A stretch of 64,000 bases of DNA from an uncultured delta proteobacterium (GCA_963804165.1 CAWDPO010000041.1:64001-128000); one strand, 5' to 3'; counted from the first letter of the stretch, positions 29,756 to 34,447 are shown. The notes: generated by a model not told the origin, from the sequence alone. Translations and numbers: made by a program.

Positions 29756-31294
29756 TCACGCGATTTTCATATCCCAACCGAGCACTTTTTCGTCGGGTCT
29801 CATTTTCCAGGAGAGGTTTTTCGCCGCGCCGTAGATGGACGCGAGATTGTAGAGCGGCACGAACGGGATGTCGTCCATAAGTATTTTTCCCGCCTGCTGC
29901 AACAGGGCGACGCGTTTCTTGGGGTCGGCGATCATTTGCTCTTCATCGATGAGTTTGTCGAACGCGGGATTGCTGTAATTGCAGCGTTTGGTGGTGCCGG
30001 TGCGAAAATACTGATCGTAGAACGTATCCGCGTCGGTCAATGAGCCGCGATTGTTGTAATAGAAGGGCAGCTTACCGCCGTTGACGCCTTCCGGTCCCCA
30101 GAACAGCGCCCATTCCTGCGAGATGAGTTCCACTCGAAAGCCGCCCTTGACCATCTGGGCCGCGACCGCCTGGCAGACTTCGCGGTCTTTAGGATAGCGG
30201 CCAGCGGAATAGTAGAGCGGCACATCGCAGCCGTTGGGATAGCCGGCCTGCGCCAAAAGTTGTTTCGCTTTCTGCGGATCGTACGGATAGCGTTTCAGTT
30301 TGGGATCTGCGCCGATGACACGCGGTCCGACCGGACCATCGACCGTGTAGCCAATGCCATCGAAAATATTTTTGACGATGGCCGGCGCGTCGACGCAGTA
30401 GTTGATCGCCTGACGCACGAGCTTGTTGTCGAAAGGCTTGTAGGCGACGTTCATCATCAGAAAATACATCTCCAAGCCTTCGATCTGGTCGACGCGGATG
30501 CGCGGATGACGCTGCAAGCGCGCCACTTCATGGACAGGAACGGCGTTGATGAAGTCTGCCTGGCCCGACTCCAACGCCGCCAGGCGCGCCGCATCCTCAG
30601 TGACTTTGCGAAAGACTACTTCTTTGATCGCTGCCTTGCCGCCCCAGTAGTCGTCGTTGCGGGTGAACACTATATTGCCGCCGCGCTGGAAACTGACGAA
30701 TTTATAGGGACCGGTGCCGACGAGATTCTGATACAACTGATCGCCGTACTTATCGCCGGCGACTTTGCTGACGAGGTAACGGTTGCGCAATCGATCGAGG
30801 AAAATCGCGAGAGGCTGCTTGGTGACGAAGATTACCGTGTGATCGTCCGGCGTTTGGATTTCAGTCACGTCGTTGAAATTCGACGCTTGCAAGCTGCCGC
30901 CTTTTTCGTCGCGCATCTTCTCCACCGAGAACACGACATCTTTCGAAGTCAGCGGCGCGCCGTTGTGAAATTTGACGCCCTTTCGCAGTTTGAACACCCA
31001 GCGTTTCCCTTGAAACTCCCACGACTCGGCGAGGACGCCGACCCAAGTTTTTTTGGTATAGTCCAATTCCACCAGCGGCTCGATGACATGCTGCCAGTTG
31101 CCATAGATCGAGCCGGAACTTTGTTGATAGGGATTGATCGAGTCGGCGACGGTATTTTGATAGATCGTGACGCGGTCTCTGGATGCCGCATGCGCGTTGC
31201 GGAAAGGATAAGGCGCTGCCAATACCCCGACGCCGAGCGCGGCGCTCGTCTTGAAAAAATCTCTGCGGCTAATCTCCCTGGTTTCGTTAGCCAT
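29756..31294 (-). CDS. Peptide/nickel ABC substrate-binding protein (family 5), Tat-exported
   Basis: SRRDFFK twin-arginine motif; LAESWE, FKLRKGVKFHNG, GTGPYK, VRQAINY; AAGGAG SD. Confidence 0.9.
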   Translation of the reverse strand: MANETREISRRDFFKTSAALGVGVLAAPYPFRNAHAASRDRVTIYQNTVADSINPYQQSSGSIYGNWQHVIEPLVELDYTKKTWVGVLAESWEFQGKRWVFKLRKGVKFHNGAPLTSKDVVFSVEKMRDEKGGSLQASNFNDVTEIQTPDDHTVIFVTKQPLAIFLDRLRNRYLVSKVAGDKYGDQLYQNLVGTGPYKFVSFQRGGNIVFTRNDDYWGGKAAIKEVVFRKVTEDAARLAALESGQADFINAVPVHEVARLQRHPRIRVDQIEGLEMYFLMMNVAYKPFDNKLVRQAINYCVDAPAIVKNIFDGIGYTVDGPVGPRVIGADPKLKRYPYDPQKAKQLLAQAGYPNGCDVPLYYSAGRYPKDREVCQAVAAQMVKGGFRVELISQEWALFWGPEGVNGGKLPFYYNNRGSLTDADTFYDQYFRTGTTKRCNYSNPAFDKLIDEEQMIADPKKRVALLQQAGKILMDDIPFVPLYNLASIYGAAKNLSWKMRPDEKVLGWDMKIA

Positions 31295-31344
31295 GGGATT
31301 CTCCTTCAAGCTTCATTCGTACCTTCATGCTACCAACTAGCTTT

Positions 31345-31441
31345 TGTCATTCTGAGGAGTATAGCGACGAAGAATCTGCTTTGGGTCTTCATGGTTTGAT
31401 CAGATTCTATAATTTCCAAACCAGATGCTTCACTTCGTTCA
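31345..31441. repeat. REP-like dyad whose right arm is interrupted by the IS (continues at 32758-32766)
   Basis: Left arm TGTCATTCTGAG...AAGAATCTG; right arm CAGATGCTTCACTTCGTTCA|GCATGACA once the IS is removed. Confidence 0.8.
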
Positions 31442-31459
31442 TCTATGAAAGCTTTGTCA

Positions 31460-31646
31460 AGGTGGCTGATATTCACATATCGATATTCCGTCAAAGGTTT
31501 TGAACAAACTTACTCATATCGTCCGTAGTCCTGCGCACCCGATGTTATCGGACTCATCTATTCGCCGTCTTAAGCGGCAGAGGAAAATGCCACAGGGCTG
31601 TCGCAATCAGCATTCGAGCCTTGTTTGGCTCATGAGCGAAACGCGC
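31460..31646 (-). ncRNA. Putative bridge/seek RNA in the IS right non-coding end (boundaries approximate)
   Basis: Two parallel hairpin+GA+guide modules with segments identical to the target (ATGCTGA) and donor-junction (ATAGATGA) sequences. Confidence 0.65.
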
Positions 31647-32687
31647 TTAGCCCCGCGTGGACGACATCGGTTCCCGATAGGACTCTCCCTTCTTAAGCAT
31701 CCAGAAAGCCGCCTCGGCCAAGTGTCGGGCGACCGCCACAATCGCTTTGCCATGACCGCGCCTGGCTTTGACGTTTTCATACAGCCGGCTGATATGTCGG
31801 TACTGGCAGCGCTCGCGGTTGAGCACCGCGCTGTTGGCCGCCTCGACGAAGGCCCACTTGAGATACAGGTTCACATCTTTGCGCACCCGCCCGTAGCGGA
31901 TCTTGCCGCCACTGGAGTTCTCTCGCGGTACCAGTCCCGCATAGCTCGCCAACTGTTCGGCTCGGCCAAAGCGTTCGATGGTGCCGATCTCAGTCCAAAT
32001 CACCACCGCCAGCATTTCACCGACCCCCGGCTCACTCTTCAAGTAGGTCGTCTGGGGGCAGGGAGCAAACGCTGCTTGCATCTTTGCTTCGATGACCTTG
32101 AGATTGGCTTGTACATGATCGAGTTCGTCAAGCATCAACTTCAGCGCTTCGCCGGTATGAGGGGGCAGTTTAGCCAGCAGTCCTTCGAGGATCTGTCGTC
32201 CCTGCTTGCCAAAGGCGTCGCTGATTCCGTCCACCTTAAAGCCGTACTTACTTATAGTGGCGTGAATCCGATTCTTGAGTTGGGTGCGTTGATTGCTCAA
32301 CACCATGCGGGTGCGCGGCAACTCCCGAGCGTCGCGCACCGCGGACGGGGGAATCCAGACCGTCGGCAGGGTTCCTGCCCTCTGCAAACGGTTCATTCCT
32401 TTGGCATCCAACTTATCGCTCTTGTTGACGCTGCCGATCATCAGCTTGGCCAAGCGTGCATTGACCAGTTGCGGACTCCCTTTTCCAGCTTCGATCTCAT
32501 CGACTACCCAGTACCAGTTCCCAACCGTCTCCACCGCCACGGGAGTTCCGGGATTCCACTTCTTGGTAAAGTTCTCGATGGTTCCACCAACGTGCGCGAG
32601 TTTGCACTCATAGAGCTTATCGCCCTTGTCGTTTTCCACTCGCGCCCAGCTGTAGTGCTTGTGAACATCCAATGCAATGTATTCCAT
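31647..32687 (-). CDS. IS110 family transposase (DEDD RuvC-like recombinase)
   Basis: IALDVHK, VAVE, KSDKLDA, PGVG, SYAGLVP..NSSGGK, A.VAVARHL; AAGGAGG SD. Confidence 0.95.
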   Translation of the reverse strand: MEYIALDVHKHYSWARVENDKGDKLYECKLAHVGGTIENFTKKWNPGTPVAVETVGNWYWVVDEIEAGKGSPQLVNARLAKLMIGSVNKSDKLDAKGMNRLQRAGTLPTVWIPPSAVRDARELPRTRMVLSNQRTQLKNRIHATISKYGFKVDGISDAFGKQGRQILEGLLAKLPPHTGEALKLMLDELDHVQANLKVIEAKMQAAFAPCPQTTYLKSEPGVGEMLAVVIWTEIGTIERFGRAEQLASYAGLVPRENSSGGKIRYGRVRKDVNLYLKWAFVEAANSAVLNRERCQYRHISRLYENVKARRGHGKAIVAVARHLAEAAFWMLKKGESYREPMSSTRG

Positions 32688-32836
32688 TTGCGATTTCCTC
32701 CTTCACCCGCCAGTCTAGTCACTGACGCTGTGGATTCCATCGCTTTCATATTAATCAGCATGACAACCCGCGAACAGCCAACTCCGCCAGAAGAACCATT
32801 CCGACTTCTCTCGCTTCGTGTCCTTAGTGCATTCTT

Positions 32837-34256
32837 CTAGGGTTTAACGAGTGCGGGCCGTCGCGTGTGCCAATCTGTTGCGCTTTGATAGGCTGCCGCC
32901 ATATTTAAAACGGTTTGGTCGCCGAACCAGGCGCCGATCAACTGCATACCGATCGGCATGTTTTCCGGACTGATACCGCAGGGAAGCGAGCAGCCGGGCA
33001 AACCGAGCATGCTCGGAAAGCGCAACAGATTGGAATGATTGTAACTCGCGTGGCGTGTATCGTCGCCATTGCCTTTTACGCCGTCGACGAGGAGCGGCGC
33101 GACTCTGCCGGTGGTCGGCGAGGCGATGATGTCGACTTTCTCATACGCTGCGCGCACGCGCCTCACGAATCTTGTGGCGCGCGCGCTGGGCGGTTAAATA
33201 TTCGGACGCGGTGATCGTCATGCCCACGGCAATGCCTCGGGCGACGTGGGGCACATAATCTTGATGGCGCTCGCGAAACCAACGGCGGTTGATGCCGGCG
33301 CTCTCGGCGGAGCTGGTCAACATGGAAGTCATCGCGGCGTACTTTAGCTCGGGAACGTCGACATCGACGATTTCGCAACCTGCGTCACCGAAAATTTGGA
33401 GCGCTGCCTCGAAAGCTTGCTTCACGGCAGGGTTCACGCCTTCCAAAAATGGCCGAAGAACACCGACTTTCAAGCCTGTGATATTAGCGTCAAGCCGAGC
33501 TGAGTAAGCCGGTTTTTCTTGATGTACACTCGCCGGATCGCGCGGGTCGTGGCCGGCGATGGGGTCCAAACCCAATGTGATGTCTTGCACCGACCGCGCA
33601 AACAGCCCCACATGATCTTGACTCCAGGCACCGCGGAACGAGCCGTGACGGCTGATGATGCCGAACGTGGGTTTAAAACCGACGATGCCGCAATAGGACG
33701 CCGGCCTGCGCACCGACGATCCGGTCTCGGTGCCATAGGAGAGCGGACCGATGCCGGCGGCAACGGCGGCCGCGGAGCCACCGCTCGACCCGCCGGCGAT
33801 GCGATCCACATTCCACGGATTGTGGACCGGGCCGAAGTGAGAAAGCGTCGACGTGCCGCCGTGGCCGAACTCGTCGAGATTCGTTTTGCCGATGATGATT
33901 GCACCGGCTGCGTGCAAGCGTTCAACTAAATGTGAATCTGTCGTAGACACCCAGTCCGCCAGAATCTTCGATCCGCCTGTGGTCAGCACGCCGGCGGTCT
34001 CAAACATATCTTTGATCGTCACGGGCACGCCGTGCAGCGGGCCGCGATAGTTTCCGCGGGCGATTTCCTGATCTGCTTTGCTTGCTTCGGCGGGCGCTTG
34101 TTCGCGTAGAACCGTGATGAAAGCGTTGAGCTTGCCTTCAAGCTGATTCAGATGCATCAGTGCCGTTTTCACGGCCTCGGCAGACGACAGCTCGCGCGCC
34201 GCGATGAGTTGTGAAAGTTCGGTCAAATTCAATTCAAGAATATTACCGGGAGTCAT
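32837..34256 (-). CDS. Amidase signature family enzyme (GatA/AtzE-like), frameshift near 33160
   Basis: GPLHGVPVTIKD, GKTNLDEF, GGSSGGS, GTETGSSVRRP; C-terminal PIGMQLIG in a second frame. Confidence 0.87.
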
Positions 34257-34258
34257 AG

Positions 34259-34447
34259 TCAAACCTTTTTGCTTGCGGGTTGCGCTTGCTGCGAAATCCA
34301 CGGCGTGCCTTGAGCGAACTCTTCCAGCTCGGCTACGACTCTTTCAAGATCGGCAATTTCGGCGGTGATGAATTCGAGATCGGTAGCCGAAAACTCAACT
34401 TCCTCGAGCAGCGCCAGTCTGTGCGCAATCTTGTCCTTGTCTGTCAT
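34259..34447 (-). CDS. Small acidic protein, possibly a GatC/AtzG-like amidase partner
   Basis: GAGGAG SD; 62 aa; helical acidic pattern; ends 2 nt before the amidase ATG. Confidence 0.6.
   Translation of the reverse strand: MTDKDKIAHRLALLEEVEFSATDLEFITAEIADLERVVAELEEFAQGTPWISQQAQPASKKV

Follow-up and report, generated by a model that had tools for sequence, protein, structure and literature searches.

A probable RNA-guided IS1111-type insertion sequence within a REP unit of an uncultured delta proteobacterium

Between an amidase gene and a gene for a solute-binding protein, an uncultured delta proteobacterium carries a pair of repetitive extragenic palindromic (REP) units, one of which is interrupted. 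What is the interrupting segment, and how was its landing site selected? The locus lies in a window of 64,000 nucleotides (GCA_963804165.1 CAWDPO010000041.1:64001-128000; the window means this whole stretch, and positions are counted from its first letter). Our analysis indicates that the segment 31442-32757 is very probably an intact insertion sequence (IS) of the IS110 family and IS1111 type, which moves by RNA-guided site-specific recombination. A sequence-only reading of the same DNA had proposed an IS1111-type bridge recombinase precisely inserted in a REP, with a promoter formed at the circle junction.

The element, its ends and the repeat around it are located as follows, with LE for the left end and RE for the right end.

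31442..32757, minus strand: whole insertion sequence, 1316 bp with one core copy counted; LE is the high-coordinate end and RE the low-coordinate end
31440..31441, unstranded: probable core dinucleotide CA (TG on the transposase strand) at the RE junction, from the sequence and from relatives L013 and L019; second copy at 32756-32757
31444..31452, unstranded: subterminal inverted repeat, RE side, 9 bp, from the sequence; also in relatives
32742..32750, unstranded: subterminal inverted repeat, LE side, 9 bp, from the sequence; also in relatives
31345..31378, plus strand: intact REP unit of the ATTC subtype, partner of the interrupted unit, from the window sequence
31423..31441, minus strand: interrupted REP unit, tail part, ATGC subtype, from the window sequence
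32758..32765, minus strand: interrupted REP unit, head part, from the window sequence and the flanks of copies elsewhere in the genome

The trinucleotide TCA, at 31439-31441 and 32755-32757 of the window, bounds the segment. Flank and end have only a core of 2-3 nt in common, as in site-specific insertion without target duplication. Excision of 31442-32757 in silico joins 31423-31441 to 32758-32765 and restores a REP unit of 27-28 nt, inverted relative to the unit at 31345-31378. The sequence-only reading had taken the restored sequence for the partner arm of a dyad; the inverted unit is indeed restored, whereas a perfect dyad is not, since the two units (34 nt, ATTC versus 27 nt, ATGC) form a REP pair. 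It had also reported TCA at both junctions and the 9-bp repeats, and both are present. An exchanged core of two bases, CA (TG on the transposase strand), is more probable than TCA, because the junctions of L013 and L019 read TGA at LE and TGG at RE, and the guide ends in CCA, i.e. it follows TGG. The subterminal repeats show a compensatory C/T-G/A change at both sides in relatives and measure 11-16 bp in distant ones. Non-coding DNA is distributed unevenly, with 205 nt downstream of the transposase gene (31442-31646) versus 70 nt upstream (32688-32757).

The single gene of the element and its ribosome-binding site are these.

31647..32687, minus strand: transposase / bridge recombinase gene, 346 aa, intact (open reading frame list; Pfam PF01548 and PF02371; NCBIfam NF033542)
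32697-32703, minus strand: Shine-Dalgarno sequence AAGGAGG upstream of the transposase gene

Domain searches revealed DEDD_Tnp_IS110 (PF01548, E 2.1e-10) and Transposase_20 (PF02371, E 3.4e-21), and the protein scores 232.5 bits against the NCBIfam model NF033542, ‘IS110 family RNA-guided transposase’ (cut-off 140). The nearest solved structure is the IS621 transposase (PDB 8wt6), with an E value of 2e-11 over the C-terminal domain. Alignment to IS621 places KSDKLDA on NKTDTVDA and PRENSSG on PRRYESG, which we take to be the catalytic acidic pair and the serine of IS621. In an alignment with 25 relatives (26 proteins), residues E53, D91, D94, G251 and G260 do not vary; D7 is present, as is the motif GLVPRENSSG, which follows the family pattern G(L)-P----S/T-G and contains G251 and G260. 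The best matches among annotated plasmids are unnamed ‘IS110 family transposase’ genes with 32-33% identity. A DEDD RuvC-like N-terminal domain, a C-terminal Transposase_20 domain and insertion without target duplication make the element a member of the IS110 family.

Its placement within that family follows anatomy. The seekRNA paper that defines IS1111-type anatomy (PMC11187229) quotes transposase lengths of 330-350 for the IS1111 family, and the bridge RNA paper (PMC11208160) gives subterminal inverted repeats of 7-17 bp. With its 346-aa protein, 9-bp subterminal repeats, long downstream non-coding region and order of guide matches (see below), the element appears to be of the IS1111 type. 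Together with the Pfam and NCBIfam matches, this anatomy supports the earlier designation as an IS1111-type bridge recombinase.

Comparison with relatives suggests what the downstream region encodes. A scan of 185,579 species genomes yielded 116 loci encoding relatives, 80 of which were kept. Nine close elements with both ends in the locus (64-82% identity) were aligned, and the ends of 13 more distant elements were defined by pattern. The genomes of the close elements, labelled as Nitrospirota/Nitrospirales, Candidatus Binatia, Chloroflexota and ‘delta proteobacterium’ metagenome-assembled genomes (MAGs), hold elements with the same ends as the window element. The predicted RNA and its guides map to the following positions.

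31538..31657, minus strand: predicted bridge/seek RNA, ~120 nt, in which the internal loop for target binding precedes a donor-binding region with two hairpins (RNAalifold on 11 elements; pair counts on 28)
31633..31641, minus strand: 5' target guide (right-target), TTTCGCTCA, same sense as the target bottom strand right of the core
31606..31614, minus strand: 3' target guide (left-target), AATGCTGAT, matching 4 nt left of the core plus the core
31553..31562, minus strand: donor guide, AATAGATGAG, repeating the RE terminus plus core; 8-nt match to the abutted ends
31580..31589, minus strand: candidate second donor guide, LE side, across the intervening hairpin from the first and equal by position to the CCATCAT / ATTCAT guides that match LE in distant relatives

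RNAalifold on 11 sequences gave a 9-bp basal stem, which includes the stop codon of the transposase gene (31647-31649), a 4-bp invariant stem, an internal loop of two variable 9-nt strands and an apical hairpin, followed by two more hairpins. Counted on our version of this structure across 28 elements, 95.6% of cells are paired, compared to 79.1% in shuffled sequences and 34-46% when one side is slid. Changes on both sides occur in 13 of 24 pairs, and all nine basal-stem pairs covary. Between the last conserved hairpin and the -35 hexamer of the end described below, ~77 nt (31461-31537, minus strand) are poorly conserved between the two lineages of this genome and among relatives.

The two strands of the internal loop were compared with the flanks of 25 elements having 22 distinct guide pairs, using 20000 permutations. 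The left guide matches its own flank at a mean of 4.23/5 positions versus 1.5/5 for the flanks of other elements, with at least three of the five positions matched in 25/25 elements and at least four in 24/25. The right guide reaches 5.09/7 on its own flank versus 2.69/7 on others. For neither guide did any of the 20000 permutations reach the own-flank sum. The longest matches at unique non-REP targets are 9 nt (L013 and L075) and 7/7 (L025, L026 and L033). The strand complementary to the target top strand comes first, i.e. the top-strand match lies 5' of the bottom-strand match; the same order is reported for IS1111 seekRNAs (PMC11187229), and the bridge RNA of IS1111 elements is located in RE (PMC11208160). 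On the donor side, the guide of distant relatives tracks their own RE terminus (AGAGATGA, AGATATG, ATACATG). These comparisons support the prediction of a bridge/seek RNA in the 205 nt that follow the transposase gene, a structured molecule in which the two sides of the internal loop fit both target strands around the core.

The element is repeated in its own genome, an assembly (G000) of 7.5 Mb in 46 contigs that is 81% complete. A search with the full span (1-1316) revealed two lineages. Lineage A comprises four copies with 99-100% identity to the window element. Lineage B has six full-length matches with 80-82% DNA identity, one at a contig end and one decayed, in addition to a truncated fragment.

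Lineage B copies, from the own-genome search: C17:220416-221732, C3:314201-315517, C14:142425-143741, C3:197066-198382, C20:89974-91289, C30:69031-70344
Lineage B truncated fragment, from the own-genome search: C22:28901-29690

The lineages have their first and last 21-22 nt in common, including the promoter hexamers and inverted repeats, and their proteins differ at 40-41 of 346 residues. The surrounding DNA differs at every copy while the flank type stays the same; the copies are therefore separate insertions and not duplications. Within lineage A, the window copy and C36:38405 encode identical intact proteins and differ by one base in a non-coding region (hairpin loop), the copy at C20:85271 is frameshifted, and C17:395920-397236 carries A67V, W111R (a tryptophan kept in all 26 relatives) and a 1-nt insertion in the donor guide, and is probably disabled. 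Four lineage B copies are intact and C30:69031 is decayed. Copies with different ends or non-REP flanks would have spoken against the sequence-only reading; all copies have the same ends and REP flanks, and its claim of insertion in a REP is borne out. As the same ends and flank type recur at every other copy in the genome and in relatives, the insertion pattern goes beyond chance. At least two further, more distant IS110-family lineages occur in the genome (e.g. C34:140631-141638, C6:244528-245535, C12:27142-28290 and C26:32216-33364), with open frames of 416-439 aa and 176-203 bits to NF033542.

The target is a short, many-copy, imperfectly palindromic sequence that often occurs as inverted pairs and is intergenic at the window site, as REPs are described. 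It follows the pattern of a head GTCAT-N-CTGA and a tail GAAG-N'-ATC, in which N and N' are complementary. A genome census found 137-139 complete units (59-60 ATTC, 59-60 ATCC and 17 ATGC) and none with the reversed pattern as control; for 74 of 137 units, a second unit in inverted orientation lies no more than 130 nt away. The base defining the subtype belongs to a short stem, because it is complementary to a base in the unit tail in 135/137 units, and a single unit folds weakly as DNA (-2.2 kcal/mol). Two other genomes (G025 and G094) carry the window site's restored unit (25 nt) without interruption.

The two lineages differ in the subtype that they occupy. Lineage A sits in ATGC units, with the LE flank GCATGAC in 4/4 copies and an RE flank ending in GCTCA in three copies and GTTCA in the window copy; lineage B has the LE flank GAATGAC (ATTC subtype) in 6/6 full-length matches. 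None of the 59-60 ATCC units in the genome is occupied. The left guides, AATGCTGAT in A versus AATTCTGAT in B, differ by a single G/T change equal to the subtype difference (ATGC versus ATTC), so that a one-base switch in the guide tracks the base pair defining the REP subtype. After the stop codon, lineage A has TTTCGCTCA where lineage B has CGCGGCTCA, followed by a 5-bp stem with two compensatory changes, which separates this guide from the left one. A third guide variant, ATCC, would serve the third REP subtype in a Nitrospirota genome.

The occurrence of the REP family was assessed with the strict pattern.

Same genus: 9/12 genomes, or 8/11 without the unpublished G005
Other families of the same order: 1/8
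Own phylum (even draw of 200 further genomes): one unit or more in 32 genomes, ten or more in 14
Genomes holding the related elements L014, L015, L016, L080 and L017: 5/5, with 8-78 units each, a count biased by the choice of these genomes for carrying a related IS

The family is patchy, being abundant across most of the genus, nearly absent in sister families, and present in Nitrospirota MAGs with related IS. The element family and the REP superfamily recur together in unrelated phyla, which hints at an IS following a repeat that spreads horizontally. It is quite possible, and we propose it tentatively, that two sibling RNA-guided IS lineages have split one REP family between them and that the IS diversifies on the repeat it follows, a natural case of guide reprogramming and niche partitioning. 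A link to REP-associated tyrosine transposases (RAYT) did not emerge, in that 18 Y1_Tnp matches were found in the genome and this REP is absent from the 1.5 kb around each of the 15 examined. These matches are IS200/RAYT-like (e.g. C15:112517-112879 and C1:180575-180904) and lie mostly in open frames of ~320 aa. A literature search by four REP sequence words returned chance hits (primers, unrelated genomes).

The ends of the element carry two hexamers that come together when the ends are joined.

31455..31460, minus strand: -35 hexamer TTGACA, adjoining the RE repeat and pointing outward, from the window sequence
32748..32753, minus strand: -10 hexamer TAATAT, in LE, 17 nt from the -35 only with the ends joined

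The joined ends of the window element read TTGACA-17-TAATAT, a score of 10/12. TTGACA stands at the same place in 13/13 close elements, and TTGACA-like sequences occur in most distant ones. With the ends abutted computationally, a spanning sigma-70-like site scores at least 10/12 in 17/26 elements and at least 9 in 25/26, compared to shuffled-RE controls, of which 0.8% reach 10 and 10% reach 9; integrated left junctions have a mean promoter score of 7.2. In the close group, each hexamer is confined to one end, the -35 to RE and the -10 to LE, whereas the -10 straddles the joint in the distant group. A consensus scan of the integrated copy (31300-32900, both strands) found no sigma-70-like and no terminator-like site. 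An active junction promoter has been published for ISEc11 (PMC11187229). The hexamers that the sequence-only reading had noted, pointing at the transposase, are thus present, and a comparable junction promoter, here predicted, is kept in relatives.

Taken together, these features suggest the following cycle. The DEDD/serine recombinase of 346 aa would be made together with a ~120-nt bridge (seek) RNA, which is encoded directly behind the gene and takes in its stop codon. In this RNA, one internal loop would pair with both target strands, along 4 nt to the left of the TG core and as many as 7-9 nt to its right, and a second region would pair with the abutted element ends. The element would leave as a circle, in which TTGACA of RE and TAATAT of LE form a promoter driving the recombinase gene and the RNA. 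The circle would then insert, always in one orientation and with no duplication, into the TG core where the short stem of the REP unit has its top. That circles form, that the promoter is active, that the RNA is made and that the element still moves today we infer from what has been published on ISEc11, ISPa11 and IS621. Of the earlier description as an intact, probably active element, the first part stands, with an intact protein that is identical at C36:38405, and the second is an argument by analogy.

Several observations weigh against RNA-guided movement of an IS1111-type element. The alignment with the IS1111-family members IS5075 and IS4321 covers residues 1-337 at ~22% identity; an Rfam 15 scan of 31200-33000 with E up to 1 gave no match; and the relatives used for covariation are mutually related, so that the counts overstate independence. 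The right flank of the window copy fits the guide at 5/7 non-core positions, with a mismatch adjoining the core, and the LE-side donor candidate of the window's subfamily fits by eye at ~7/10 positions with two central mismatches. Neither a circle junction nor a skip of 31442-32757 or restored site was found in four public runs, namely three Logan contig sets and one small raw-read run, whose scattered low-depth metagenome contigs and 2 raw reads are too shallow to tell. The lack of a circle or empty site in public reads, and the damaged copies C20:85271, C17:395920 and C30:69031, would also suit an element of the right kind that no longer moves, a fixed relic whose copies stem from past spread or duplication of host DNA. 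The two protein-identical lineage A copies, one non-coding base apart, and the four intact lineage B copies speak against such a relic, as do the differing flanks, which mark separate insertions; we hold it to be very unlikely. A further doubt concerns the joined ends, whose hexamers might not be a working promoter. Expression of the recombinase would then depend on read-through from the amidase gene, which lies upstream in the same orientation, or on an internal promoter that went unrecognised; a case of this kind is reported for ISPpu9, whose circles create no stronger promoter (PMC12288879). The IS is co-oriented with both neighbouring genes, and its -10 matches at only 4/6 positions, which suits read-through. 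However, the invariance of TTGACA beside the RE repeat in the 13 close elements, the excess of spanning promoters over controls and the integrated copy's lack of a sigma-70-like site all favour a junction promoter, and expression by other routes seems improbable.

The choice of target allows another reading, in which a protein that recognizes the REP hairpin mainly sets the site and the RNA matches are secondary or coincidental; in a milder form, the RNA acts but needs the hairpin as a second layer. Insertion at the top of the REP stem and covariation of the subtype base with its partner agree with it, and a preprint reports that a target stem-loop adds to the specificity of ISPpu10 (10.64898/2026.03.19.712850). 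On the other hand, relatives that do not target REPs (L013, L019, L075 and many distant ones) carry guides matching their own sites over 7-9 nt. The strong form, in which the protein alone reads the hairpin, is ruled out because guides match targets at such non-REP sites; the milder form is unaffected. As a whole, a leading role of the hairpin is unlikely, though less remote than the alternatives above, and target choice by the bridge RNA remains our preferred explanation.

The element lies between the amidase gene (32837-34301) and the SBP_bac_5 solute-binding protein gene (29756-31309), and all three are on the minus strand. Both genes also stand next to each other in four genomes of the same genus (77-89% identity), where the spacers of 69-500 nt are unrelated in sequence, and none of the four offers a true orthologous empty site. 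The orthologous spacer at L103 (G012:C121) holds an unoccupied REP pair of another subtype (ATGTTGA head). The amidase gene is split into overlapping frames, 33141-34301 and 32837-33166, which cover Pfam Amidase positions 1-361 and 360-445, respectively; the break looks like a frameshift close to 33141-33166, whether genuine or introduced in assembly. At the insertion points, the longest frame between stops that spans the site runs to 54-312 codons, a measure that G+C-rich DNA makes indecisive on intergenic position. The earlier suggestion that the IS uses a multi-copy repeat as a safe harbour is a reasonable description: the REP is multi-copy and the window site is intergenic, intergenic position having been checked at the window copy only.

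Among public sequencing data, 24 runs were listed, none on record as RNA, and the best DNA run contained 0.37 of the sampled words. The four runs searched contained fragments of the IS and of REP units. A contig of run X2 joins 31270 to 32856 and skips 1585 bases, with a shorter side of 21 nt and 10 differences nearby; the contig probably comes from another organism that has its own version of the gene pair. Run X4 has a joint of 31461 to 31537. Both joints have sides of 21-23 nt at low likeness.

The locus thus gives a well-resolved example of an IS1111-type bridge/seek RNA element from an uncultured soil bacterium, with 22 distinct guide pairs and their targets. For annotation, it explains the 1.3-kb interruption of an intergenic REP pair and predicts the landing sites of further copies. 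The variant series is useful raw material in two respects: it can help to work out the RNA scaffold of IS1111 elements, which has been studied less (above all in its donor-binding part), and to choose compact recombinases for engineering. All principles involved are already published for this well-understood type of mobile element; the element changes none of them and is of modest interest. Its particular contribution is a clean natural series of retargeted guides, among them those of two lineages of the same genome that divide a REP family through a single guide base.

The circle and junction promoter of ISEc11 are reportedly the subject of work by Prosseda in 2006, and the REP targeting of IS621 is said to have been described by Choi in 2003. 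IS5075 and IS4321 reportedly target the inverted repeats of Tn21-type transposons, to go by a title of Partridge and Hall from 2003. These two IS1111-family elements of enterobacterial plasmids, annotated ‘IS110-like element’, align over the full length of the window protein and differ from it by the low identity given above. REPs in general are known as targets of IS (Tobes and Pareja 2006). IS621 of the IS110 group in E. coli has the same recombinase family, a bridge RNA with target and donor loops, a dinucleotide core and REP targeting (PMC11208160); unlike the window element, its RNA lies in the left end upstream of the gene, its subterminal repeats are very short and its guide order is opposite. 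ISPpu9 and ISPpu10 of Pseudomonas putida are IS110-family elements in a REP or conserved intergenic stem-loop (PMC12288879; 10.64898/2026.03.19.712850). They are gammaproteobacterial and have other targets; ISPpu10 circles form a strong hybrid promoter, and those of ISPpu9 form no stronger one (PMC12288879). ISEc11, an IS1111-family element of E. coli/Shigella, resembles the window element in its circle with an active junction promoter, its essential downstream non-coding region and its programmable seekRNA (PMC11187229), features that are predicted here; it differs in targeting a short linear sequence instead of a REP, and the window element has its -10 wholly in LE and its -35 wholly in RE. 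ISPa11, an IS1111-family element of Pseudomonas aeruginosa for which RNA and transposition have been shown, belongs to another host phylum and has another REP and other guides. By their descriptions, both elements target REPs and have a downstream non-coding region that gives rise to a seekRNA, in our case a predicted one, with the top-strand match 5' of the bottom-strand match (PMC11187229).

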